Source: Armatimonadota bacterium
Lineage (GTDB): Bacteria > Armatimonadota > Fimbriimonadia > Fimbriimonadales > GBS-DC
Length of the DNA stretch: 43,271 nt
Assembly: GCA_037444405.1 (NCBI GenBank)
Contig: JBBIML010000022.1
Location: 1 to 43,271 of the forward strand
Reading direction: 5' to 3'
Shown here piece after piece: positions 14,932 through 28,337 of the stretch. The translations under genes were made by a program, and so were the position numbers. The notes below the pieces were generated by a model. The model saw nothing but the letters and a program-made list of their open reading frames with translations, did no database searches and was not told where the DNA came from. Positions within the stretch are counted from its first letter, which is position 1. Each line of letters begins with the position of its first letter.

Positions 14932-15546
14932 ATGATTGGCTGGCTGAGTGGGGTTGTGCGGGCGATTGAGGGCGAGCGGGTGCTGATCGAGGTGCAGGGT
15001 GTCGGCTACGAGCTGCGCCTGCCTGCCGCCCTGCGCGAGCAGCTGCCCCCGCCCGGCGAACCCATCAGCCTCTATGTGCGCACGCTCTTCAACGAAGAGG
15101 AGGGCATCACCCTCTATGGCTTCGCCGACGCCTGGCAACGACGCCTGTTCGACCTGCTCATCACCGTTGGGGGCGTCGGTCCCAAGCTCGCGTTGAATCT
15201 CATGAGCGCGACGGAGCCGACCACGCTCGCCCGCGCGATTGCGCTCAGGGACACCCGCATGCTGCGCACGCTGCCGGGCGTCGGCACCAAGCTCGCCGAG
15301 CGGCTCGTGCTGGAACTCTCCGAAAAGGTCGCCGAACTCGCCTTTGAGGAGCGCATCGAGCGGCTCAAGGCTGCCACACGCGCCGCCGCGACCGATCTGG
15401 AGGCGCTTGTTGCGGGGCTGGTTCAGCTCGGCTACTCGCGGCGCGACGCCGCGAGCGCGGTGCAGTCTGCCCTGCAGGAGAACCCCGACGCCGATGAGCA
15501 GACGCTTATGCGCCTCGCGCTTTTGAAGCTGGCTCCGAAACGGTAG
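14932..15546 (+). CDS. ruvA: Holliday junction branch migration protein RuvA
   Basis: MIGWLSG, VQGVGYE, TLYGF, LITVGGVGPKLAL, LPGVGTKLAERLVLEL, LVQLGY. Confidence 0.96.
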   Translation: MIGWLSGVVRAIEGERVLIEVQGVGYELRLPAALREQLPPPGEPISLYVRTLFNEEEGITLYGFADAWQRRLFDLLITVGGVGPKLALNLMSATEPTTLARAIALRDTRMLRTLPGVGTKLAERLVLELSEKVAELAFEERIERLKAATRAAATDLEALVAGLVQLGYSRRDAASAVQSALQENPDADEQTLMRLALLKLAPKR

Positions 15547-17908
15547 GCGCCGTGGGGCGCAGCCACCGCCAGAGCCGCCGACGCGGACGCCACCGCCGCG
15601 GCAGCACCATCGGCAACGGCTGGGCATACAGTCGCGCCAGCGCGAACTTCGCATCCCGCGCCCGCCGAACCGCCGCCAGCAGACCGCCCACCAGCGCCAG
15701 CGGCGGACCCAGCCACACCAGAATCGTGAACGGCTTGTAATAGACCTCCAACGGGATCACCCAGCGCGGCACAGTCTCCGGTCTGCCCGGCACCATCAGC
15801 AGCCGGAACTCCACCAGCCGCTGATTTACATCCATCTCGCCAATCACCAGCACCGCGCCGTCGGGCAAAGTTGCGGGCACAGGCACAACGCCCCCTTGCG
15901 AGACCAGCCGAAACGGTTCGACCTCGACGGGCTTCTGCCAGTCGGACTTGCTGACTCGCACCTTCGCTATCGCGCGGAAGCCCTCCTGACCCATCGCCGC
16001 GCCGCCCGCCCGCAAATCCACAAAGCGCAGGGTGTAATCGCCGACCTGTATCCGCTCGCCCTCGTGCAGGCGGGCAATCAGCGGGCTGGCGTCCACCTGC
16101 GGCGGCGCAAAAAACGACACATACAGGTCGTGATCCCACCAGCGGCGAATCCAGGGCCACACCACACTGTTGTTCTCGGCGCGGCGCCGATCCAGATAGA
16201 AGCGCGGCTCGGCGATGAACTTCTCGCCATGGCGCGCGACCTCCAGCCGAACCCGATTGAACTTATCGAAGCGCGGGTCGCCGAACCGCTCCGAATCGCC
16301 CGTCATGCCCAGATAGCGCCAGCGGTAGCCGAACGCCAGCGTGTCCTGACCTTGCATAATCACCACCTGCTGCTTGCCCTCGTAGGCGTTGGACAGGATC
16401 AGCCCGATGACGCCGATTGCCAGCCCCGCGTGGGTCAGGAAGCCGCCCACCGTGACGCGCGACGCCTGCACCCGCCGCCAGATCGCGCCCAGATTGGAAT
16501 AGAAAGCAAAGCTGAGCAGCACCACAATAAAGAGCGTCAGCGGCTCCTGAAAGCCCAGAAAGTACAGCCCGAAGCCGGTCGCGACCGCCAGCAACCAGCT
16601 TTTGGTCAGCCGCTGCAGAATATCGTCCAGGCTCATTCCTGACCAGCGCAACATCGGCGCCGCCGCCAGCACAATCGCCGCAATCACCACCCACGGCGCA
16701 TGCACCTGATTGTAAAAGTCCGGCTTCAGCGAGACTGGCTCCCCGCGAAAGAGCCTGGCAATCAGCGGGTACGAAGTGCCCACCAGACTGACAAGCGCGG
16801 ACAGGATGAGCAGCGTGATGCCCCAGCGCACGGCAGCCTCGCGCGAGAAGCCACGCACTTTGACTGCCGACGGCGGCGCGGGCATCTGCCGATACCGCCA
16901 GCCCCACAATCCCAGCGTGAGCAGCAGCCCACCCCCCAGCATGGCAATCAGAATGCCGAGCGCGCTCTTCGCCAGCGCGTCGAACGAATGCACCGATACC
17001 TCCGCCAGCACCCCACTGCGCGTCAGAAAAGTGCCGTACACAAACAGCAGGAACGGAATCGCGCACAGCAATGGGTTCCAGCGCGCCATCCGCCCGCGAT
17101 TGATCTGCAGCATCAGCCCATGGACTGCCGCCGCCATAAACAGCCAGGGGAAGTAGGAGGTGTTCTCCACAGGGTCCCATGCCCAGAAGCCGCCCCAGCC
17201 GAGCGTCTCATACGCCCAGTAGCCGCCCAGCGCCAGCCCGAAGCCCAGCATCGTCGCCGCGTAAATCGCCCACGGACGCACCCGAATCGCCCACTCCTCG
17301 TATTCGTTCCGCCAGAGCGCCGATAGCGCGTAGGCGAACGGAACCGCTAATGCCGCGAAGCCCGCAAAAATAATTGGCGGGTGAATCGTCATCCAGATGT
17401 TCTCCAGTGAGGCGTTCAGCCCGATGCCGTCGCGCGGCGGGAAGTTCGCTCGCAAAAAGGGCGCGTCCTCTGGCGGGGGCGGCAACGGCGCGAACGGACT
17501 CTGATACGCCAGAATGCCCATCAGGCACAGCACCAGCGCCGAGTAGACGGTCATCACCCAGCGTTCGTAGCCGCCCGCCGTGCGCATCAGCAGCAGCCCG
17601 TACAGCCCTGTCCAGATTGCCCACAGCAGGAAACTGCCCTCCTGACCCGCCCACGCGCCCGCTATCTTGTACCAGAGCGGCAGCGACCGCTCGCTGAAAT
17701 TGAACACATATTGCAAATCGTAGCGCCCTGTGATGAGCGCGTACTGCAGAACCGCCTCCGTCGCCAGAATGAAAACGAAGGCGAGCCCGAACGCCCGCCG
17801 CGCCCACCGAAGGGAACCTTCACCCCGCCGAATGCTGATTGCGTAGAGCGCGGTCGCCGCGAAAGCGAACAGCGCGCCCAGCCAGACCACGAGATAGCCT
17901 GTCAGCAA
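15506..17908 (-). CDS. ccmF: Cytochrome c-type biogenesis heme lyase CcmF
   Basis: WAGQEGSFLLW, IHPP, WAYETLGWGGFWAWDPVEN, GTFLTRSG, SVHSF. Confidence 0.95.
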   Translation of the reverse strand: MLTGYLVVWLGALFAFAATALYAISIRRGEGSLRWARRAFGLAFVFILATEAVLQYALITGRYDLQYVFNFSERSLPLWYKIAGAWAGQEGSFLLWAIWTGLYGLLLMRTAGGYERWVMTVYSALVLCLMGILAYQSPFAPLPPPPEDAPFLRANFPPRDGIGLNASLENIWMTIHPPIIFAGFAALAVPFAYALSALWRNEYEEWAIRVRPWAIYAATMLGFGLALGGYWAYETLGWGGFWAWDPVENTSYFPWLFMAAAVHGLMLQINRGRMARWNPLLCAIPFLLFVYGTFLTRSGVLAEVSVHSFDALAKSALGILIAMLGGGLLLTLGLWGWRYRQMPAPPSAVKVRGFSREAAVRWGITLLILSALVSLVGTSYPLIARLFRGEPVSLKPDFYNQVHAPWVVIAAIVLAAAPMLRWSGMSLDDILQRLTKSWLLAVATGFGLYFLGFQEPLTLFIVVLLSFAFYSNLGAIWRRVQASRVTVGGFLTHAGLAIGVIGLILSNAYEGKQQVVIMQGQDTLAFGYRWRYLGMTGDSERFGDPRFDKFNRVRLEVARHGEKFIAEPRFYLDRRRAENNSVVWPWIRRWWDHDLYVSFFAPPQVDASPLIARLHEGERIQVGDYTLRFVDLRAGGAAMGQEGFRAIAKVRVSKSDWQKPVEVEPFRLVSQGGVVPVPATLPDGAVLVIGEMDVNQRLVEFRLLMVPGRPETVPRWVIPLEVYYKPFTILVWLGPPLALVGGLLAAVRRARDAKFALARLYAQPLPMVLPRRWRPRRRLWRWLRPTAPTVSEPASKARGA

Positions 17909-17914
17909 CGCCGT

Positions 17915-18292
17915 TCACCTCCGCGCCGACTGCTGCTCGCCCTGATACTTGCTGGGGCACTTGACCAGCATCTCGCGCGCCTCAAACACGCCGTTTTTAT
18001 AATCGCCAATCACCACCACCTGTGTTGCCGCCTCAAAATTGTTCGGCTTGCCCTTCGGATAGACCACCCGCAGCACGCCCGTCTCATCTTTGCCCTCAAA
18101 GGTGAGCGTCATCGTCTTAATATCGAACCGAATGCTCTCTTTGATGGGGGTGAGTGCGACATGCACATTGCGCGGATGGCGCTCCAGATCGCGAACCTTC
18201 ACATAGGGGCTGGTGTTCTCCACAAAGGCGCGCACGGTGAACACAAGCCCCACCACGATCAAAGCCAGAATCAGCAGATTGCTCCATCTCAT
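17915..18292 (-). CDS. ccmE: Cytochrome c maturation heme chaperone CcmE (CxxxY type)
   Basis: N-terminal membrane anchor, C-terminal LVKCPSKY, adjacent to ccmF. Confidence 0.9.
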   Translation of the reverse strand: MRWSNLLILALIVVGLVFTVRAFVENTSPYVKVRDLERHPRNVHVALTPIKESIRFDIKTMTLTFEGKDETGVLRVVYPKGKPNNFEAATQVVVIGDYKNGVFEAREMLVKCPSKYQGEQQSARR

Positions 18293-18320
18293 CGTCGATC
18301 CCTGTTCCAGTATACCCACC

Positions 18321-19796
18321 CTACAGCATGCTCACGAAGCGTTCTGTCTCGCGCGTGTAGGTGCTGAACGGGTCGCGCATATCGACCTGACGATTGCGGT
18401 CGACATACACAATATCCCAGTCGATGTAGTAGCGGTTGTAGCGTCGTTCGGCGAGGCGCTTGATGATGTAGCCGCGTGCGGCGGCGCGGGTGTTCTGCGG
18501 CGGTGTGGTGATGGCAGCTTCAATCTGCACATCGTCCACCAGCCGCTTCACCTCGCCCATCTGCTGCAGCGCGTAATACAGCCCCTGATCGGGGTGAATG
18601 TTGTGATACTCCAGATCAATCGAATGGAGCGCGTCGTCGCCCCATTGCGCGCCCGTCTCCTCCATATAGGTGCGCAGCACCTTCAGCTTGATCAGCCAGT
18701 CGATTCGGTCTTCCAGCTTTTCGGGGTCGGTTTCGAGCATATCCAGCACATACTCCCACTCCTGCAGCACCCAGTCGGTTTCGGGGTCGCGCCCCGCGAA
18801 TCGGCGTTGCGCCAGTTGCAGATAGATGCGCTGGAGGTCGATCGCGCTGATGGTGCTGCCGTCGAGCATCTGCACAATCCATTTGCGGGTGGGGTCGCGC
18901 GAGACGCTTTTGAGCGTGTGCAGAGCGTCCTGCAGGCGCAGCCAGTTCGGCAACGCGCGCGCCTCCGCCAGGTCCAGCACGAGGCAGGTCGTGCCCAGCT
19001 TGAGCGCCATCGCGTACTCGCTCATGTTGCCCTCGCCGAACAGCAGGTGCAGGCGCTGATAGTTCTGGTAGCCGTACACGCTATCCCACTTCGGATTGAT
19101 AATCGCGCGATTGAATCGCACGCGGGAGGCGTTCTCGCGCACAATATGGTCAGCTCGCTGCGAGAGCTGATAGGTCACCGTTGGGTCTGGCTCCACATTG
19201 TACACATTGGAGACCCAGATGAAGTCGATGGGGTGGTCTGCCATCTCGGAGAGGGAGGGTCGGAAGCCGGCATGTTCGAGGCGATGCCCGCCCACGCGCC
19301 CCGCGCCCGCAAAAATCTGCCGCGTGGTCAGAAACGGCAGCACCGTCTTGTGCCAGTCGGAGGGCAGGCGGTCATCGGTGCGGATCAGATAGTTTTCGTG
19401 GCAGCCGAAGGTGTGCCCCGCGAAGTGGTCAACATTGTTGTTATGGAAGCTGACGCGCTCTTCCCAGCCCAGCCCGCGCAGGATGTCGACGATGATGCGC
19501 TGACCCGCTTTTTCGTGGCGCACGAGGTCGAACAGGCTGGCGCATTCGGGCGTGGCGTACTCTAAGTGGCTGCCGACGGCATCGATGTAGAGCCGCCCGC
19601 CATTAATGAGGAACCCGCCGCTGCGGGCAGGCTCGAACGCTTCGTCGCGCGCCGTGAGGTCGATCAAGCCGAGTTTCGCCTTGTGAAAGGCGTAGTTTTT
19701 GACGGCTTCCACCACGGTCTCGGAGGTGCCGATGCGCTCATCGCGCACGAAGCAGCCGAACTCCGTCTCTATCCCAAAGATACGGCGACCGATCAT
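18321..19796 (-). CDS. pafA: Pup/UBact--protein ligase (PafA family)
   Basis: RIFGIETEFG, NGGRLYIDAVGSHLEYATPEC, GCHENY, QLSQRADH, IDLEYHNI; lies in the proteasome cluster. Confidence 0.9.
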   Translation of the reverse strand: MIGRRIFGIETEFGCFVRDERIGTSETVVEAVKNYAFHKAKLGLIDLTARDEAFEPARSGGFLINGGRLYIDAVGSHLEYATPECASLFDLVRHEKAGQRIIVDILRGLGWEERVSFHNNNVDHFAGHTFGCHENYLIRTDDRLPSDWHKTVLPFLTTRQIFAGAGRVGGHRLEHAGFRPSLSEMADHPIDFIWVSNVYNVEPDPTVTYQLSQRADHIVRENASRVRFNRAIINPKWDSVYGYQNYQRLHLLFGEGNMSEYAMALKLGTTCLVLDLAEARALPNWLRLQDALHTLKSVSRDPTRKWIVQMLDGSTISAIDLQRIYLQLAQRRFAGRDPETDWVLQEWEYVLDMLETDPEKLEDRIDWLIKLKVLRTYMEETGAQWGDDALHSIDLEYHNIHPDQGLYYALQQMGEVKRLVDDVQIEAAITTPPQNTRAAARGYIIKRLAERRYNRYYIDWDIVYVDRNRQVDMRDPFSTYTRETERFVSML

Positions 19797-19820
19797 TGTT
19801 TTTCACCCCGGCGTGTGTAT

Positions 19821-19846
19821 GTGGGGCGCGGGAACCGCGCCCCTAC
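19821..19846 (-). repeat. GTAG-type REP-like palindrome (family B) between prcA and pafA
   Basis: GTGGGGCGCGG-GAA-CCGCGCCCCTAC. Confidence 0.75.
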
Positions 19847-19862
19847 ACGCTCACACGCTCTA

Positions 19863-20615
19863 TTATAGACGACGCAGGTAGCCCTGCAGCTGTTCCGCGG
19901 GCACGATTCGGAACCGATTCTCGCGCAGGGTCTGGCGTTCCAGGATGCCCACTTCCAGCTGGGCGTCCTGCAGTTCCTCGCGCAGGCGGTCACGCGCCTG
20001 CGATTCACCAATCTGTTCCGCCTCTTCCTGGCTGGCTGCCTCTTTTGCGATGCCCCACGCCATCAGTGCGATAGGGATTACCTTCTCGAAGGTGGGCGTG
20101 CTGGCAAGCGACTCGCGAAGATAATTGTTCGTCAGCTCTTCGGCGTGGCTTGTGCCGGCGATGGCGGCGAACCGCTCGGACGGCATGAACTCGCCATCGT
20201 AGTTGAGGATATAGAACAGGTCGCTGTCGGGTGTGGCGTGCAGCTCGGCGAACAGGGCGCGCACCACAAAGGGCGTGGTGAGTGGGTCGCCGAACGCCTT
20301 CTTGAGCGCGGGGCTGAGCGCGAAGCCCACCACCCGCTGCACCGTTACATCATCAGGGCTGCGCACGAAGCCCTCCTGATGCGCGAAATCGATCGCCGCC
20401 AGCCGCAACGACTCCACATCCGCCTGATTGCCCATCGCCGAGAACATCAGGCGGTCATAGATTTCGAACACCTTGCGCCCGCGTCGGCGCGTGGTCAGCA
20501 GCAGGATGCCGTTATCGTAGCTGATGCCAATCACGGGGCTGCCCGCCTGCAAGCGATTGCGGATATACTGGGCGCGTTGCTGAATGTTCTCCTGAAAGTC
20601 GTAGGGTGTAAGCAT
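19863..20615 (-). CDS. prcA: 20S proteasome alpha subunit
   Basis: TPYD, KVFEIYDRL, DVESLRLAAID, LEVGILER; follows prcB. Confidence 0.92.
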   Translation of the reverse strand: MLTPYDFQENIQQRAQYIRNRLQAGSPVIGISYDNGILLLTTRRRGRKVFEIYDRLMFSAMGNQADVESLRLAAIDFAHQEGFVRSPDDVTVQRVVGFALSPALKKAFGDPLTTPFVVRALFAELHATPDSDLFYILNYDGEFMPSERFAAIAGTSHAEELTNNYLRESLASTPTFEKVIPIALMAWGIAKEAASQEEAEQIGESQARDRLREELQDAQLEVGILERQTLRENRFRIVPAEQLQGYLRRL

Positions 20616-20618
20616 CGG

Positions 20619-21440
20619 TTAGCCTCCGCGCAGGGAGTTCACAAGGTCTTTGAGCGTCGATTCGGGCACTTCGAACACGCCCTCGCGGTTCACATAGCGG
20701 GCGGTGGGCAGCACTTTGTCGATGCCGCCCGTCGCGGCATCCAGATCCGCCGCGATATCGAGCAGCAGCAGCGCCTCCTGCAGCACCTCTTCCAGGGGGC
20801 GCTCGCTGAAGGCGCCTTTGGTGCGGGCGATATAGTCGAACACGCCGCGGATACGCTCTGCGCCGGAGCCAGCCGCGCCGAAGTCGGGCGTTTCGAAGCG
20901 GGCACCGCTCGCATCAAAGAAGAAGATGCGCCCCGCGTCCTGGTCGGGGTCGTACGCGCTCAAAATGGGGATGAACAGCCCGATCCCGCTGAGCGCGTTC
21001 GGCAGGTTGGACGCCAGCACGCGGCTCACCTCCTGCAGTTTGCCGTCGAGGCTCATCGGCTGCAGCTGGCTGCGAGCGTAATATTTGAAGGCGTGTCGCA
21101 GGTAGCGCACCACCTCCATCGCCCGCCCGTACGCGCCCGCAATCGCAATCAGCGTCGAGTCATCGAGCGGGATAATCTTATCGGCGCGGTCGTACATCAC
21201 GGCGTTCGCGGCGGTGGCACGGCGGTCGCCCACATTCAGCACGCCGCCTTTGAACTTCACCGCGATCACGGTGGTGCCGTGGATCTCCAGCAGGGTCGGT
21301 GTGGACGCGACGGGCGTCTCGGTCGCGGGCGGACTGACGGCGCGAGCAGTATCGGCGCTCGCGAACAGGGGGAGTGTCATCCCCGTCTGCACCTGCCACT
21401 CTTTCAGCAGGCTCGCAAAATCGCCCTGATGCGCTCCCAT
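20619..21440 (-). CDS. prcB: 20S proteasome beta subunit with propeptide
   Basis: Propeptide then HG/TTVIAV catalytic Thr, GDRRATA, GSGA, DAATGG. Alternative GTG start at 21449. Confidence 0.94.
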   Translation of the reverse strand: MGAHQGDFASLLKEWQVQTGMTLPLFASADTARAVSPPATETPVASTPTLLEIHGTTVIAVKFKGGVLNVGDRRATAANAVMYDRADKIIPLDDSTLIAIAGAYGRAMEVVRYLRHAFKYYARSQLQPMSLDGKLQEVSRVLASNLPNALSGIGLFIPILSAYDPDQDAGRIFFFDASGARFETPDFGAAGSGAERIRGVFDYIARTKGAFSERPLEEVLQEALLLLDIAADLDAATGGIDKVLPTARYVNREGVFEVPESTLKDLVNSLRGG

Positions 21441-21441
21441 G

Positions 21442-21630
21442 CTACTCACCGCTGCGCTGGCGATAGCGGCGCGCCTGCTCAGGATCGATGCGCCGCATGC
21501 GCTTCAGCAGCTCGTTCGTTTCGGGTCGACGCACATCGGGGCGTGAGGGACCATCCCCATCGCTCCCCGGTTTGGTCAGCGGCTCCTGTGGAATCGGGCG
21601 CCGCAATCGTTCTTCCGCTTGCCAGATCAT
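21442..21630 (-). CDS. ubact: Ubiquitin-like protein modifier UBact
   Basis: 62 aa with a disordered N-terminus. ELLKRMRRIDP..ARRYRQRSGE ends in the R[ST]G[EQ] signature. Located between dop and prcB. Confidence 0.92.
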   Translation of the reverse strand: MIWQAEERLRRPIPQEPLTKPGSDGDGPSRPDVRRPETNELLKRMRRIDPEQARRYRQRSGE

Positions 21631-23129
21631 GATGATTGAACCTCCTTGACCATCCTGACGAAGGTCGTGATATCGGGAGCCGTCGTCAGACGGCGGCTCA
21701 GCTCGCGCAGGTCTATCTCAATCAATCGGCTCAGATCGAGCCGTGCGCTCTGATTGCCATCGCGCAACAGGATCCGCTCCCAGTTGAGTGTTTCAATCTG
21801 CTCCGCGAATCGCTGGATGCACAGCCCGCGAATGGCGGCGCGGGTGTCTAGCGGCGGCTGATGCACCGCCTGCTCAATCGCCTCCGTGCTCACCAGCGTG
21901 AGCATCTGACCCTGCTCCACCAGCGCGTAATAGAGACCCTGTTCGGGGTCCACATTATGATACTCCAGATCGAGGGCAAAAAGTGCCGGGTCGTCCCACG
22001 AAAGCCCCTCCGATTCAACATAGAGGGTCAACAGTTGCCGCTTGGCAACCCAGTCGATACGGTCGGCGAGCCGTTCAGGGTCCGTCTCCAGAAGGTCCAG
22101 CACGGTTTGCCATTCGCGCAGCAGCCAGTCGGTCTCGGCGTCGCGCCCCGCGAATCGCTCGCTCGCCGCCTGCCAGTAGGCACGCTGGATATCAATCGCG
22201 CTCATGGCGCCCATATCGGTCTCCACCAGCCATTTGAGGTCGGTGTCGCGCGAGAGGCGTTGCGCCTCGCGCACAGGGTTCGGAATGGAGAGCGGGGTGC
22301 GCCAGCCCAATTCGGTGAGGTCCAGCACGAGTGCGGTTGTGCCCACCTTGAGCGCGGTGGCATACTCGCTCATGTTCGCGTCGCCGCAGATGACATGCAG
22401 GCGCCGGTAGCGGCGCATCGGCGCGTGTGGCTCGTCCCGCGTGTTGAAGATGGGGCGCCGATAGAGCGTCTCCACATTCATAATGTCCATATAGAAGTCG
22501 GCGCGCTGCGAGAGCTGGAACGGCACGCGCGGGTTCGGCTCCGCCTCGACGCCCACCTTGCCCGCGCCCGCATAGAGCATGCGCGTCACCAGAAACGGGA
22601 GCATGTTCGCCACCAGCACCTCGAACGGCACCTCGCGCGTCGTTGAGTAGCTCTCGTGGCAGCCGTAGCTGCTGCCATGATGGTCGCTGTTGTTCTTGTA
22701 GAGGGTCAGGCGGTTGCCTGTCTGGCGTTCGTAGGCGCGGGCGCATGCAAGCACGATGCGCTCGCCTGCCTTATCGTGCGCGATTAAATCCAGCAGGCGT
22801 CGGCATTCGGGGGTGGCGTATTCGGGGTGGGCGTGGTCATTATAGAGCCGTGCGCCGTTGCCCAGCGCGTGGTCGGAGCGCACCTCACGCTCCGAAAGCG
22901 GCACGGGATGCTCGCGTTCAATCTGCGCATCGTGAGGGTCCACTTCCAGATGCTCCACGCGGAAGCCGCGCATATCGCGGCGAGGGTCTTCCAGGCGATA
23001 GTCCCAGCTTCGCACGGCGGGCAGGGGGCAACTGCGCACCACGCCAACCGCTTCCATCAGCTGGTCTGCGACCCCTCGACCCTCCACATATAAGCCGTAC
23101 TCGGTCTCAATACCCGTCAGGCGTTGCAC
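21627..23129 (-). CDS. dop: Depupylase/deamidase Dop family protein
   Basis: GIETEYG, NGARLYNDHAHPEYATPEC, YKNNSD..GSSYGCHE, RRPIFNTRDEPHA, RRLHVICGDAN. GTG start 6 nt after TATAAT. Confidence 0.92.
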   Translation of the reverse strand: MQRLTGIETEYGLYVEGRGVADQLMEAVGVVRSCPLPAVRSWDYRLEDPRRDMRGFRVEHLEVDPHDAQIEREHPVPLSEREVRSDHALGNGARLYNDHAHPEYATPECRRLLDLIAHDKAGERIVLACARAYERQTGNRLTLYKNNSDHHGSSYGCHESYSTTREVPFEVLVANMLPFLVTRMLYAGAGKVGVEAEPNPRVPFQLSQRADFYMDIMNVETLYRRPIFNTRDEPHAPMRRYRRLHVICGDANMSEYATALKVGTTALVLDLTELGWRTPLSIPNPVREAQRLSRDTDLKWLVETDMGAMSAIDIQRAYWQAASERFAGRDAETDWLLREWQTVLDLLETDPERLADRIDWVAKRQLLTLYVESEGLSWDDPALFALDLEYHNVDPEQGLYYALVEQGQMLTLVSTEAIEQAVHQPPLDTRAAIRGLCIQRFAEQIETLNWERILLRDGNQSARLDLSRLIEIDLRELSRRLTTAPDITTFVRMVKEVQSS

Positions 23130-23175
23130 GGGGTTATTATACCCCACCTGCGGGTATACTTCAGCGTCGAAATCG

Positions 23176-25086
23176 ATGCTGGGTCGTGTCTGGCGGTTGC
23201 TGATCGGTCAGCCGTTATCGACGCGCCGCGCGCGTCATGAGCGGCTCGCTGTGTGGCTTGCACTGCCTGTGTTCGCCTCGGATGCCATCTCCTCATCGGC
23301 TTACGCGACGGAGGAGATGGTGATGGTGCTGTGGGCGACGGGTGAGGCGGGATTGAAGCTGGCGTTCCCCATCTCGCTGGCAATCGTGGCGCTGCTGTTT
23401 ATCGTGGTGTTCTCCTATCGTCAGACAGTTCATGCCTATCCGCAGGGCGGTGGCGCGTTCAATGTGGCGCGTGAGAATCTGGGCGAGTTCTGGGGTCTGC
23501 TGGCGGCGGCGGCGCTGCTGGTGGGCTATGTGCTGACCGTCGCGGTGAGCATCGCGGCGGGCGTGAACGCGATTGTGTCGGCAGTGCCTGCACTGTTGCC
23601 CTATCGCGTGCCGCTCAATGTGCTGTTTATCGCCTTCATGACGCTGGTGAACCTGCGCGGCGCGCGTGAATCGGGCTATGTGTTCGCCCCGCCGACCTAC
23701 GGCTTCGTGCTGGTGTTCGGCGTGCTGATCCTGCTCGGTCTCTGGCGCGGCTTCACGGGCGATTTACAGCCCGCGCCCTACTTTGGCGCGACCACAGGGC
23801 TGAGCCTGATGGTGATTGCGCTCGCGTTCGCGCGTGGTTGCGCCGCGCTCACGGGCGTGGAAGCCATCTCCAACGGCGTGCAGGCGTTCAAACCGCCCGA
23901 ATCGCGCAATGCGGCGACCACCCTGCTGCTGATGGCGTTCATTCTGTCGGGGTTGGTGCTGGGCATCACCTACCTTGCCAGCCACTATCAGGTGGTGCCG
24001 CGCGTGGAGAACGGTCAGATCGTGGAGACGCTCAACTCGCGACTGGCGCGCACCATCCTGGAGGGCACGCCGTTCGAGTGGTTCTACTATCTGGTGCAGA
24101 TTGCCACGATGGCGATCCTGGTGCTTGCCGCCAACACCGCCTACGCCGACTTCCCGCGCCTGAGTTCGATTCTGGCGAACGCTCGCTATGCCCCGCGCCA
24201 GTTAGCCAATCTGGGCGACCGACTGGTGTTCAATAACGGTATCCTGCTGCTGGGTCTCGTGTCCGCTCTGCTGATTATCTACTTTCGGGGCGACACACAC
24301 TCGCTGATTCCGCTCTATGCGGTGGGTGTGTTCATCTCGTTCACGCTTTCGCAGGCGGGGATGGCGCGTCGTTTCCTGCGCGTGCGTCCACCACGCTGGC
24401 AACTGGGCATGCTCATCAACGGCTTCGGCGCAACCGTCACCTGCATGGTGTTCCTTACTCAGCTAATAGTCAACTTCCGCTATGGCGCGTGGATGACCGT
24501 CGTCGCGATTGGCACGCTCATCTACCTGATGTACAGGGTGCATGAGCATTACATGCAGTTGCGGGTTCAGCTGCGCCCCGATGAGCAGGCGCCTGCATCG
24601 GGGGTGCGCCGCCATCGCGTGCTGGTGCTGGTGCCCAGCGTGCATCGGGGCGTGCTGCAGGCGCTCGATTACGCCCGCCAGATCGCCCCAACCGACCAGA
24701 TCGAAGCCCTGCATGTGAATGTGGACCCGCGCCCGCCCGCCATCTACCGCCGCGTGCTGCGCCGCACCAAAGATGAAGCCACCCTCCAGCTCGTTACCCC
24801 CGCCGCCGAAAAAATGCAGCAGGAGTGGCACCGCCATGTGCCCGACATCCCCCTCAAAATCATCGATTCGGAACACCGCTCGCTCGTTGAACCCATCGAG
24901 GACTATATCGACGAGCTGATCAAACGCGAGCAACTGGATTTGCTGACCGTGATTATCCCGGAGTTCTATCCGAAGCGGTGGTGGCACCACTTACTGCACA
25001 ATCAGTCGGCGTGGATGCTGCGCCTTGCCCTGATGCGCAAGCCGAAGGTGGTCGTCACCACCGTGCGCTACTTCCTGGAGCGATAA
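23176..25086 (+). CDS. APC family permease (KimA/YdaO-like, probable K+ transporter)
   Basis: LPVFASDAISSSAYATEE, SYRQTVHAYPQGGG, NLRGARES, ALTGVEAISNGV, FPRL, PLYAVGVF, cytoplasmic tail WWHHLLHNQS. Confidence 0.9.
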   Translation: MLGRVWRLLIGQPLSTRRARHERLAVWLALPVFASDAISSSAYATEEMVMVLWATGEAGLKLAFPISLAIVALLFIVVFSYRQTVHAYPQGGGAFNVARENLGEFWGLLAAAALLVGYVLTVAVSIAAGVNAIVSAVPALLPYRVPLNVLFIAFMTLVNLRGARESGYVFAPPTYGFVLVFGVLILLGLWRGFTGDLQPAPYFGATTGLSLMVIALAFARGCAALTGVEAISNGVQAFKPPESRNAATTLLLMAFILSGLVLGITYLASHYQVVPRVENGQIVETLNSRLARTILEGTPFEWFYYLVQIATMAILVLAANTAYADFPRLSSILANARYAPRQLANLGDRLVFNNGILLLGLVSALLIIYFRGDTHSLIPLYAVGVFISFTLSQAGMARRFLRVRPPRWQLGMLINGFGATVTCMVFLTQLIVNFRYGAWMTVVAIGTLIYLMYRVHEHYMQLRVQLRPDEQAPASGVRRHRVLVLVPSVHRGVLQALDYARQIAPTDQIEALHVNVDPRPPAIYRRVLRRTKDEATLQLVTPAAEKMQQEWHRHVPDIPLKIIDSEHRSLVEPIEDYIDELIKREQLDLLTVIIPEFYPKRWWHHLLHNQSAWMLRLALMRKPKVVVTTVRYFLER

Positions 25087-25092
25087 CCGCCG

Positions 25093-25518
25093 ATGGCACG
25101 CACAATTCTGATGGCATATCGGGGCACGGAGGAGGATCGGCGGGTTCTGCGCTGGCTCTGCCGCCTGACCAGGCAGACCCGCGCCAACCTGCGGCTGGTC
25201 TATGTGCTGACCGTGCCGTTCAGCGAGCAGGTCGACGCGCCCGAACCGACAGGCTTACAGCAGGCGGAGCAGCTGCTGCTGGAGGCGGAGCGCATCGCCG
25301 AGCGCGAGGGCGTGATTGCCGCCGCCGATATTGTGCAGGCGCGCGACGCGGGCAGCGGGCTGGTCTCCGAAGCGGAGGAGCTGGATGTCGACCTGCTGGT
25401 GCTGACCGACCGTCGCCATTTGCTGCCGCTGGAGAACCCGCTCGGCTACGGCACGGTCGCCTATGTGCTGCGCCACGCCCCCTGCCCCGTCTGGGTCTGC
25501 TACGAACCCATCTCATAG
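25093..25518 (+). CDS. Universal stress protein (Usp domain)
   Basis: ILMAYRG...DLLVL...GTVAYVLRHAPCPVWV. Confidence 0.9.
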   Translation: MARTILMAYRGTEEDRRVLRWLCRLTRQTRANLRLVYVLTVPFSEQVDAPEPTGLQQAEQLLLEAERIAEREGVIAAADIVQARDAGSGLVSEAEELDVDLLVLTDRRHLLPLENPLGYGTVAYVLRHAPCPVWVCYEPIS

Positions 25519-25549
25519 CCAGGAGCAGGGTAAACTGTATGGGGAGCCT

Positions 25550-26617
25550 ATGGACGCGCACGACTATGCGAATCGGGTCTACCTGTCCGCTATAGAGGCG
25601 GCGAAGTTTCTGGGCGTCTCCGTGCGCACCGTTCACCGTCTCGTAATAGAAGGACGCCTGCCAGCGTTCGTCGCTGCCAGCGGGCAAAAACGCTTCCGAT
25701 TGCGCGACCTCGAAACACTCAAACAGAACCTCGCCTGGCTCACCAGTCTCCAGCAGCAGCCGTCCCTGTCAGAAAGCACCACGCTGACCCTCAACGGCAC
25801 AACCCAGCGAATCTATGTCAAAAATGCGCAATCGATGAAAGAGATTGAGGACAACAGCATCCATCTGGTCATCACTTCACCCCCCTATTTCAGCACGAAA
25901 ATGTACGCCCGCGAGCCTATCGAGGGCGATCTCGGTAATATCCATTCGCTGGAGGAGTGGCTCGAACAGATTGCCCTGGTCTGGCAGGAGGTCTATCGCG
26001 TGCTTCAGCCAGGGCGCAAAGCCTTCATCAATATTATGAATCTCCCCATCCGAATGGCAGATGGCAGTTTTCGCACGCTGAACCTGATGGGCAAAACCAT
26101 CGACCTGTGCGAGCGAATCGGCTTCATTTTCAAGCGCGATATTGTGTGGCACAAAACGAACTCTGTACGGGCACACTTCGGAACTTATCCCTACCCTGGA
26201 GGCATCCTCATCAATCATATGCATGAGTTCATTCTGGAGTTTGAGAAACCCGAACCTAAAGGCTTCAAGAAATATGCGCATCTCACCGAACGGCAGCGTG
26301 AGGAATCGAAACTTGACAGGGAGTTCTGGATTATGCTCAAAAAGAGCGATGTGTGGCTCATAAAGCCTGAAGGCAGTGGCGATCAGCGCAATCATGTGGC
26401 GCCATTCCCCTATGAGTTACCCTACAGGCTCATTAAAGCTTACAGTTTTGTGGGCGAAACGGTGCTGGACCCGTTCATGGGTTCAGGCACAACACTGCTG
26501 GCATGCATCGATCTGCGTCGGAACGGCATCGGGTACGAGATCAACCCGGAGATCGCGGCAGAAGCCGTTAATCGCCTGCGCAACCGTCAAATCTCTCTGT
26601 TAGAAGATATAGAGTAA
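25550..26617 (+). CDS. Beta-class N4-cytosine/N6-adenine DNA methyltransferase with N-terminal excisionase-type HTH
   Basis: EAAKFLGVSVRTVHRLVIEGRLPA HTH. TSPPY (motif IV) precedes VLDPFMGSGTT (motif I). HVAPFP. Confidence 0.92.
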   Translation: MDAHDYANRVYLSAIEAAKFLGVSVRTVHRLVIEGRLPAFVAASGQKRFRLRDLETLKQNLAWLTSLQQQPSLSESTTLTLNGTTQRIYVKNAQSMKEIEDNSIHLVITSPPYFSTKMYAREPIEGDLGNIHSLEEWLEQIALVWQEVYRVLQPGRKAFINIMNLPIRMADGSFRTLNLMGKTIDLCERIGFIFKRDIVWHKTNSVRAHFGTYPYPGGILINHMHEFILEFEKPEPKGFKKYAHLTERQREESKLDREFWIMLKKSDVWLIKPEGSGDQRNHVAPFPYELPYRLIKAYSFVGETVLDPFMGSGTTLLACIDLRRNGIGYEINPEIAAEAVNRLRNRQISLLEDIE

Positions 26618-26639: not shown

Positions 26640-27398
26640 ATGGCACAACGATGGGAAGATATAGAACACAAGATTCGCTTGATGAACACTTTGCTTGATG
26701 AGATTGAACTGAGCGTGGAGCAGGTGGTCAGCAAATATCCCGATAGTGAATTTTTGCTGCGATTGCTCGGATTGGTTGACTCGTGGACAGAAGACGATCG
26801 GAAAATTCTTGAAGAAAAGATTACAGGCACACGTCACCACCGCAATCATCGCGACGCGCGCACCTATGCTGCCAATGTGGTATTGGGATGGGTTATGCAA
26901 GATGTGGTGATACAGCAGTTGCGCAAATCAGGTTATGAGTGTGAGCCTGCAGGTGCAGATGCCCAGCGGCAACTTCTGCGTGGGCATCAAATCTCGGAAG
27001 AAGCCGACCTGCGCCTTCAAACACCCGCAGGCGAAATCTGGTGGCTGGATGTGCTAACAGACTATCCCACCCAAAAAGGTGCTTTATCCTACTGGAAGCA
27101 AACAAACAGATGCGATCTGCGCGACCAGAAATTCCAGCGCTTAGCTGAGAAGATTAAAGGAGGAGACCGGGCAGGCTTAATCGGTATCTCTACAGGCACT
27201 AAAAGTTATTTTGGATTAGAAATCACGGAAGAGATTGTGCAGGAGCTGCGGTCTCCCCCACCACGCAACAGGCGCATTTACCGCGTCGAGACGCACTGGC
27301 CATTCGGCGGTAAGCCCGCTATCACGCTTAATTTGCGACTTTTGCAAGTGCCCTTTTACCCTTTCAAGAACTTCCCTGCTGGGCTACCTTTCTTCACA
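26640..27398 (+). CDS. Putative restriction endonuclease (PD-(D/E)XK-like) with no stop codon, reading in frame into purC
   Basis: RBS GAGGTG, directly downstream of the methyltransferase, more AT-rich than the flanks. Pattern GWVMQD...EEADLRL...WLDVLTDY. The ORF continues to 28337. Confidence 0.5.
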
Positions 27399-28337
27399 AT
27401 GGTCAAAGAAACCCAACTTCCTCTGCCGCTTTATACGCGGGGCAAGGTGCGCGACACTTACGCGCTGGACGATGCCCTGCTGATGATTACCACCGACCGC
27501 CTCTCGGCGTTCGATGTGGTGCTGCCGACGCCCATCCCTGACAAGGGGCGCGTTCTGAACGGTCTCAGCGCGTTCTGGTTCCATCGCTTCGAACCGTGGA
27601 TGCCCCATCACCTGATCAGCACCGACTGGAGCGCGATTGCCGACGCGCTTCAGCGAGTGGGCGTGCCCGATGTGGACGCCTATCGTCCCCTGCTGATAGG
27701 GCGCACGATGCTGGTGCGACGGGCGAAGCCGTTCCCTGTGGAGTGCGTCGTGCGCGGCTACCTCGCTGGCTCGCTCTGGAAAGAGTATCTGCAGGCAGGC
27801 GGCGCCCAGCGCGAGCAACCCGTCACCCTGCACGGTATCCACCTGCCCGCAGGACTGCGCGAATCGGAACGCCTGCCCGAACCCATCTTCACACCCGCCA
27901 CCAAAGCCCACAGCGGACACGACGAAAATATTTCCTTTGAGCAAATGGCGCATATCGTCGGCGCAGACTACGCCCGCCAGCTGCGCGAGTTGAGCCTGCG
28001 CCTCTACCACGAGGCTGCCGAATACGCGCTCGCGCGCGGCATCATTATCGCCGACACCAAGTTCGAGTTCGGTCTGGATGACGGCGGGCGTATTCTGCTG
28101 ATTGACGAGGTGCTGACGCCCGATTCCTCACGCTTCTGGGATGCCGCGCTCTATCAGCCCGGTCGCGCCCAGCCCAGTTATGATAAGCAGTTCGTGCGCG
28201 ACTACCTCGAATCGATCGGTTGGAACAAGCAACCGCCCGCGCCGCCTCTGCCGCCCGACATCGTGCAGAAAACCGCCGACAAGTATCGCGAAGCCTATCG
28301 CCGCCTGACAGGCGAGCCGCTGCCACCTGCCGAATAA
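27399..28337 (+). CDS. purC: SAICAR synthase
   Basis: RGKVRDTY, TDRLSAFD, PVECVVRGYLAGS, FTPATKA..GHDENI, IADTKFEFG, DEVLTPDSSRFW, DKQFVRD. Confidence 0.96.
   Translation: MVKETQLPLPLYTRGKVRDTYALDDALLMITTDRLSAFDVVLPTPIPDKGRVLNGLSAFWFHRFEPWMPHHLISTDWSAIADALQRVGVPDVDAYRPLLIGRTMLVRRAKPFPVECVVRGYLAGSLWKEYLQAGGAQREQPVTLHGIHLPAGLRESERLPEPIFTPATKAHSGHDENISFEQMAHIVGADYARQLRELSLRLYHEAAEYALARGIIIADTKFEFGLDDGGRILLIDEVLTPDSSRFWDAALYQPGRAQPSYDKQFVRDYLESIGWNKQPPAPPLPPDIVQKTADKYREAYRRLTGEPLPPAE

Follow-up and report, generated by a model that had tools for sequence, protein, structure and literature searches.

A tyrosine-free ATPase tail and an altered alpha-subunit pocket in UBact-type proteasome systems: analysis of an Armatimonadota locus

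Introduction

The closest described relatives of the locus studied here are the UBact-proteasome system (family models NF033388 and PF20513) and the actinobacterial Pup system (structures 4b0t, 4b0r, 5kwa and 3h6f). The founding UBact paper is that of Lehmann, Udasin, Livneh and Ciechanover (BBRC, 2017), which reportedly may also describe genomes that carry loci of both types, Pup and UBact. Here, we analysed a 43,271-nt stretch of DNA (the window) from an Armatimonadota bacterium (Fimbriimonadales; GBS-DC; assembly GCA_037444405.1, contig JBBIML010000022.1; genome 98.9% complete). It carries, on the minus strand at 18321-23129, five co-oriented genes in the order dop-ubact-prcB-prcA-pafA. The locus is an ordinary member of the catalogued UBact-proteasome system. 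The new point here is that a tyrosine-free tail of its ARC ATPase and an altered pocket of the proteasome alpha subunit are, in sequence, family-wide traits.

One review names UBact once (PMC11354881). Pup-like systems outside Actinobacteria were treated by Iyer et al. (PMC2588565), and the proteasome subunits of Armatimonadetes, Nitrospirae and Verrucomicrobia form a separate cluster (PMC5666114). Term searches of the accessible text of two further reviews found no mention of UBact (PMC12288473, PMC8223512). The penultimate tyrosine is considered the main determinant of the engagement between AAA ATPases and the 20S particle in both eukaryotes and bacteria (PMC8755798). In Mycobacterium tuberculosis (Mtb), the tyrosine of the GQYL tail binds R26 of PrcA and the leucine carboxylate binds K52, and the substitution R26A or K52A in PrcA abolishes PafE-driven degradation (bioRxiv 10.1101/249060). 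Mpa docks via the same pockets plus a beta-hairpin (PMC8755798, PMC9599533), and wild-type Mpa with 20S has not been robustly reconstituted (PMC12288473, PMC8142254).

Results

Relation of the locus to described systems

The tag scored above the cut-offs of both UBact family models (NF033388, 87.2 bits against 35; PF20513, 81 against 27.8) and has the R[ST]G[EQ] end of the family. The neighbouring genes dop, prcB, prcA and pafA and the phylum agree with membership, and the locus deviates only in its unlinked arc gene. Named close PrcA homologues come from Fimbriimonadales/Armatimonadota. An earlier note on this DNA had read the locus as a UBact-proteasome locus of Armatimonadota with five tightly packed, co-oriented genes, including a 62-aa modifier ending RSGE; the open reading frames (ORFs), the family models and the close homologues bear this out.

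With the actinobacterial Pup system, the window locus has in common the gene set and order, the enzyme fold, the catalytic residues, the E/Q logic of the tag terminus, the Thr1 protease and alpha Lys52. All five proteins fell below the equivalog cut-offs of that system (PafA TIGR03686, Dop TIGR03688, Mpa/ARC TIGR03689, PrcB/PrcA TIGR03690/1). In addition, the tag is basic rather than acidic, ARC ends in [VI][VI] instead of GQYL, the alpha-subunit residues R26, G23 and F68 are replaced, the beta-hairpin reads RNGGV rather than ANGDK, and the ligase differs in its alpha-loop and contains an insertion. Bpa/PafE was not found in the window's genome.

The ATPase tail and the alpha-subunit pocket

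The ARC/Mpa gene lies outside the window, on the minus strand at G000:C6:34755-36446 (L001:1450-3141), and encodes 563 aa. The protein matched TIGR03689 (E 2.5e-135), its best PDB matches were Mpa, and the Walker A and B motifs, the pore loop and the arginine finger are all intact in sequence. Its C-terminus reads RRTII, not GQYL. The earlier note missed this tyrosine-free docking tail because the ATPase gene is on another contig.

The same kind of ending was found throughout the phylum. Among 98 Armatimonadota genomes of 21 families, with each ARC read to its stop codon and a divergent second copy in one genome (G066) excluded, the ends were VI (52), II (26), IV (14) and VV (6), and tyrosine at position -2 was found in 0 of 98. 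As a background, [VI][VI] ends were present in 13 of 1662 long ORFs (0.8%) in a crude gene set of the window's genome. A pattern scan for Thr-type UBact outside the Armatimonadota yielded at least 120 loci, with flanking sequence for 80 of them. The UBact-linked complete ARCs among the loci listed (frameshifted L239 and L295 and incomplete ARCs were dropped; L240, L260, L283 and L294 were assigned to groups by sequence likeness) ended in II (26), VI (11), VV (6), IV (6), TI (2) and AV (1). Thus, 52 of 52 lacked the tyrosine, across Nitrospirota, Nitrospinota, Verrucomicrobiota, Latescibacterota and Gemmatimonadota. Only the two C-terminal residues of the tail were conserved; the linker before them varied in sequence but hardly in length, the distance from a conserved DW motif to the tail being 30-36 residues, vs a similar 38-41 in Pup-type ARCs.

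We then compared the alpha subunits. As controls we used the Pup-type systems found in Nitrospirota and in a single Nitrospinota genome, with the 30 alpha loci that scored best and 31 ARCs. One control set was checked and passed the actinobacterial equivalog cut-offs, and the control ARCs ended in GHYL (26) or GHYF (5). A gap-free alignment of the window's PrcA to Mtb PrcA (3h6f) placed R21 at the G23 position, A24 at R26 and K48 at K52. The K52 position was lysine throughout (78/78 alpha subunits in Armatimonadota, 72/72 in the other UBact-type systems and 30/30 in the Pup type). The R26 position, the tyrosine partner in mycobacteria, was basic in 30/30 Pup-type subunits, vs only 1/78 Armatimonadota and 5/72 other UBact-type subunits. 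The G23 position was glycine in 30/30 Pup-type subunits, glutamine in 72/72 other UBact-type subunits and mostly arginine in Armatimonadota (R 68/78, G 5/78), while the F68 position was tyrosine (30/30), proline (67/72) and glutamine (76/78) in these three groups, respectively; serine also occurred there in the UBact type. The commonest form of the beta-hairpin was R[NS]G in the UBact type vs ANGE[KR] in the Pup type. The mycobacterial Tyr-Arg26 contact is therefore missing, at the sequence level, on both the ATPase and the alpha side.

One rival explanation keeps the tagging as described and has ARC act without tail docking, either as a stand-alone unfoldase or through the beta-hairpin only; the Val/Ile end would then owe its conservation to folding back into the ring or to contact with a different partner. 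It draws on the missing tyrosine, a residue on which known docking motifs of ATPases depend, on the arc gene being unlinked from the prc genes in this order, and on the tail of Mpa, which is known to tuck into the ring (PMC12288473, PMC8142254). Set against it are the strict co-occurrence of ARC and prcA (each in 90 of 161 genomes of the phylum, with the same family pattern) and the placing of arc and the prc genes in one operon in many families; the arrangement arc-dop-ubact-prcB-prcA(-pafA), with arc first, was found in 20 of 20 loci picked for arc-prcA adjacency. The restriction of conservation to two residues after a linker of near-constant length also speaks for docking, and so does the fact that the alpha subunit has correspondingly lost the residue that partners the tyrosine.

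A search of the window's genome found no other activator, with neither Bpa nor an ORF of at least 100 aa ending in G-x-Y-[LF] present. To look for a further activator with a [VI][VI] tail, we listed the ORFs with such ends, 18 in all; eight of these and one HbYX-like (hydrophobic-tyrosine-any residue) ORF were scanned, and seven proved to be ordinary enzymes or transporters. Of the other two scanned candidates, one has stops in 5/5 relatives and is thus probably a shadow ORF, and another was present in only 1/5 relatives. A complex prediction with three PrcA subunits and the last 30 ARC residues (score 0.08, mark 0.32) was made without controls, and we counted it neither way. Taken together, we regard an ARC that is not tail-docked as unlikely.

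Several points weigh against docking through a Val/Ile tail. Nearly every alpha subunit retains Lys52 (PMC12288473), so its presence in both types is weak evidence on its own. The R26 mutant data concern PafE, not Mpa. Glycine was retained at the G23 position in five Armatimonadota alpha subunits, although all Armatimonadota ARCs that were read have the Val/Ile tail. The Val/Ile motif is not absolute, since the UBact-linked ARCs L428 and L429, from one Nitrospirota branch, end in AIE and QIE, also without tyrosine. All UBact-type ARCs, and likewise the alpha subunits, probably descend within one lineage, and the fit between tail and pocket may then reflect a single ancient switch rather than repeated co-evolution. 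Finally, no experimental UBact study was found in openly searchable full text, which leaves out subscription papers and supplements. No statement on a tyrosine-free ARC tail was found in such text either, the founding UBact paper not being covered.

Other features of ARC were recorded. The ARC gene of the window's genome has its own TATAAT box and a GAGGAGG site. The arginine-finger motif reads LRPERIDR rather than LRPGRIDR in 55 of 98 Armatimonadota ARCs, and the pore loop reads MWLG in these ARCs vs KYVG in Pup-type ARCs. The mean charge of a stretch of the ARC coiled coil was -3.8 in Armatimonadota and only -0.6 in the other UBact phyla. A 50%-cluster search returned ARC relatives with many other tails, which came without genome context and were not tallied. 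Among distant cluster representatives, P0127, P0143, P0151 and P0166 end RTIE, RGII, DNII and RNII, respectively, and from these ends the tyrosine-free tail may extend beyond the sampled phyla.

Genomes with two systems

An alpha subunit was detected in 41 of 101 Nitrospirota genomes; 23 genomes had two alpha subunits and 22 had two ARCs. Both systems were read within one genome in G206, G210, G237 and G310. Where they were read, dual genomes carried a Pup-type operon (GHYL/GHYF) and a UBact-type operon (II, IV or IE). G206, a Nitrospira defluvii record (L266, L412), has two alpha genes, as do 22 other Nitrospirota genomes.

In such genomes, two docking codes might keep each ATPase on its own core. 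A second rival explanation accepts both codes as real and denies that they are orthogonal: the UBact-type residues would have drifted neutrally in one lineage, and Pup and UBact ATPases and cores would mix freely. K52 is common to both types, and most of the sampled UBact phyla show only one system, nearly all positive Armatimonadota having one ARC and one alpha match, so that the motif must be maintained there by something other than insulation. The sharp differences between the types at three pocket positions and in the hairpin, and the persistence of both types together in 23 of the 41 proteasome-bearing Nitrospirota genomes, argue the other way, and we consider free mixing doubtful, if a closer competitor than an undocked ARC. 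The broader proposal, that UBact proteasomes of at least six phyla use a non-HbYX code in which a beta-branched C-terminal pair fits an alpha pocket without the tyrosine-binding Arg, that Nitrospira-like nitrifiers thereby run two complete and insulated systems (acidic Pup with GHYL and basic UBact with II/VI) and that the ligase is possibly Dop-derived, we judge from these sequence comparisons to have an even chance of being right.

Dop and the PafA-like ligase

Exactly two PF03136 genes are present in the window's genome, dop and pafA. The Dop protein scored higher with TIGR03688 (452.9, below the cut-off of 492.3) than with TIGR03686 (345.4), its best PDB match was Dop 4b0r (E 4e-107), and its structure model had a predicted local distance difference test score (pLDDT) of 93. 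At the diagnostic PafA/Dop positions of Hecht et al. (PMC7947786), the hallmarks of Dop are present: a full Dop loop (WDYRLEDPRRD), catalytic Asp98, the GhExE motif, D-H-A after the catalytic Asp (RLYNDHAHPEY), and NTRDEPH with the essential arginine at R231.

The product of the last gene scored almost equally with TIGR03686 (302.6) and TIGR03688 (289.8), in both cases below the cut-off. It carries the PafA-type residues F62, G75, H217 and D459, and catalytic D72 in DAVGSH; F62, H217 and D459 stand at the positions of F54, H188 and D439 of PafA. In the UBact ligase rows of our alignment, these were conserved as F in 49/49, H in 37/49 (Y in the rest) and D in 38/49, and the F62 position in Dop rows was occupied by V/I/L and similar residues. 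K236 corresponds to R207 of PafA, which binds substrate (PMC10465538), and was K or R in 49/49 ligase rows. The ATP-binding and catalytic positions that we examined were invariant in both the Dop and the ligase groups. The segment from ETE to RLY, which contains the Dop loop, measured 86 aa in the window's Dop, 58 aa in the window's ligase and 44 aa in PafA of the Pup system; the ligase loop is thus about 29 aa shorter than that of its neighbour. Loop length and diagnostic residues also supported the dop and pafA gene calls of the earlier note. The ligase has in addition an insertion of about 30 aa before QLSQR: the spacing from GxGR to SQR was 47-48 aa in 26/26 Armatimonadota ligases, vs 14-21 aa in Dop and Pup-system PafA.

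Some features count against the ligase assignment. The alpha-loop (SRVRFNR) lacks two conserved threonines, and the model does not show it as a helix (pLDDT there about 67-70). The model as a whole (pLDDT 88) has the PafA/Dop fold with a template-modelling score of about 0.8, and Foldseek ranked Dop and PafA structures alike. Because the alpha-loop is atypical and the fold is equally close to Dop, the ligase role rests on the diagnostic residues and the gene order, from which the last gene likely encodes the ligase.

The opposing explanation is that the enzyme roles are mislabelled and that the pafA product is a second hydrolase, bifunctional, or independently derived from Dop with a different choice of substrate. 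The near-equal scores with PafA and Dop models and structures fit it, as do the divergent alpha-loop, the 30-aa insertion and the NTRDEPH region, which reads NPKWDS in the ligase. A maximum-likelihood tree also split the four enzyme groups by tag type and not by function (Shimodaira-Hasegawa-like approximate likelihood ratio test, SH-aLRT, 98-99); these were quick, unrooted trees of 44 and then 27 of 118 rows, in which actinobacterial and outgroup rows were absent. On the other side stand the PafA-specific F, H and D, the glycine beside the catalytic Asp, the roughly 29 aa missing from the Dop loop, the basic residue throughout at the R207 position, and an approximately unbiased (AU) test that did not reject a single clade of all ligases (p = 0.12). 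We therefore consider mislabelling improbable, the least probable of the three alternatives considered here. As for its origin, the topology suggests that the UBact ligase may derive from Dop independently of the actinobacterial PafA.

The UBact tag and its terminal residue

The tag is basic, with a net charge of +5 in its C-terminal 30 aa, vs -5 to -8 in six Pup tags. Pup family models gave no match for this 62-aa protein, which ends in SGE and not in an acidic GG[EQ]. The ORF is not a chance one, since UBact recurs across the order: among 61 related genomes it was present in 55, PF03136 in 59 and ARC in 58 (these tallies take in the unpublished genome G054).

The terminal residue varied. In 83 Armatimonadota genomes it was E in 53 and Q in 30, within the family of the window's genome it was E in 16 and Q in 8, and outside the Armatimonadota it was E in 68 and Q in 52 of the at least 120 loci listed. 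Among the 80 loci with flanking sequence, 53 had an E-type tag, with dop beside it in 46, and 27 had a Q-type tag, with dop beside it in 19; several of the misses are short contigs. We rejected the idea that the terminal Glu sets this tag apart, as E and Q toggle within families and Dop is retained with either residue. The precedent of Pup is that an encoded terminal Glu requires no deamidation (PMC12288473). By this analogy, the suggestion of the earlier note that Dop would act here mainly as a deconjugase, deamidation being unnecessary, is reasonable but ordinary, with the Glu being evolutionarily labile. The tryptic SGE-lysine remnant that it proposed as a signature of conjugation is correct, with a computed mass of +273.096 Da.

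Two unusual tag loci were noted. At L211 (G084:C4, 4603-4957), two tandem UBact-like ORFs lie between dop and prcB, both ending in QRSGQ, and the second has a divergent, Pro-rich front part. L226 (G066:C18, 2-4990) is a second arc-dop-tag-pafA module with 27-33% identity to the window's system. Its small ORF ends in KQRGGQ and has no NCBIfam match, its ARC ends in YMSLA, and no prc gene was found within the stretch retrieved.

Gene layout, promoter and neighbouring features

The features of the locus are listed in Table 1. Gene junctions are overlaps or 3-nt gaps, except for that between prcA and pafA (66 nt). The ubact start has AGGAGG 10 nt upstream and an ATGA overlap with the dop stop. PrcB has a 58-aa propeptide with an HG|TT cleavage site, placing the catalytic Thr at residue 59, and Thr1, Asp17 and Lys33 are present; prcB starts with GTG, with an alternative ATG at 21440.

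Table 1. Features of the UBact-proteasome locus, in order of transcription.
Feature	Position	Strand	Remarks
-10-like box TATAAT	23136..23141	minus	6 nt 5' of dop GTG 23129
dop	21627..23129	minus	500 aa from GTG 23129; PF03136 515.8 bits
ubact	21442..21630	minus	62 aa, ends RYRQRSGE; NF033388 and PF20513 above cut-off
prcB (proteasome beta)	20619..21449	minus	PF00227; TIGR03690 136.5 bits, below cut-off
prcA (proteasome alpha)	19863..20615	minus	PF00227; aligned to Mtb PrcA 3h6f
pafA-like ligase	18321..19796	minus	491 aa; PF03136 426.3 bits

The ORF finder placed the dop start at GTG 23147, upstream of the TATAAT box. We preferred GTG 23129, as had the earlier note, because the box lies just before it and a TANNNT box is at the same position before dop in all nine loci displayed of two families (6/6 in f1 and 3/3 in f2). 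The box is likely a leaderless promoter of the operon, judging by its position. A two-hexamer promoter scan of the locus gave 0 sites, and terminator-like sites were found only at chance level.

The five-gene order is intact in this genus and variable beyond it, with pafA, prcA or both relocated in many relatives. The suggestion that the core particle is absent from some families was rejected, as prcA and prcB are merely dispersed there. A search for viral relatives of prcA gave 29 pattern matches, of which 0 were confirmed.

Between prcA and pafA (19797-19867), a TATAAT overlaps the prcA stop and is followed by a GC hairpin (GGGGCGCG...CGCGCCCC). This element may serve as a promoter within the operon, or it may be a small repeat; no counterpart was present in the 75 nt displayed of a same-genus locus (L068). 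At the other end (23130-23176), the divergent starts of dop and an amino-acid permease gene are just 46 nt apart, with -10-like boxes on both strands (TATAAT on the minus, TATACT on the plus). Genes for cytochrome c maturation, ccmE and ccmF (15506-18319), follow on the same strand within a few bases after pafA. Further along, a 565-aa ORF (26640-28337) comes after a DNA methylase gene (25463-26617); it has purC (SAICAR synthase) at its end, and its first 250 aa gave no family match. Possibly, the ORF is a restriction-enzyme-like gene that continues by in-frame read-through into purC.

Discussion

Activators of the 11S type (PA26/PA28) dock without HbYX, and a separate loop opens the gate. They are a precedent for tyrosine-free docking, but their fold is unrelated and ATP-independent. 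The ARC tail, having no penultimate tyrosine, is not of the HbYX type. By analogy, ARC would nonetheless resemble both HbYX ATPases (PAN/Rpt) and 11S activators in pairing its C-terminal carboxylate with an alpha-ring lysine, a pairing named for PAN, Rpt, PA26 and Blm10 (bioRxiv 10.1101/249060).

The sequence of events would be as follows. With ATP, the PafA-like ligase would couple UBact, by the side chain of its terminal Glu, to lysines of substrate proteins, as the ligase's intact catalytic residues and the Pup pathway suggest, and Dop would mainly remove and recycle the tag here while also deamidating it in relatives with a Q-ending tag. ARC would capture tagged proteins by the basic tag and unfold them. 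For docking, the carboxylate at the C-terminus of ARC would pair with alpha Lys48 (K52 in Mtb), and the Val/Ile pair would likely sit in a pocket lined by the R or Q at the G23 position and the Q or P at the F68 position. On balance, we think it probable that the operon and ARC tag lysines and feed the proteasome through a Val/Ile-ended docking tail that replaces GQYL.

A natural family that spans phyla and has neither the ATPase tyrosine nor its alpha-subunit partner allows the requirements for gate opening to be tested directly. If the two codes are orthogonal, UBact parts would provide a second, independent channel of targeted degradation for laboratory bacteria, and their orthogonality would explain how two proteasomes are kept in nitrifiers.

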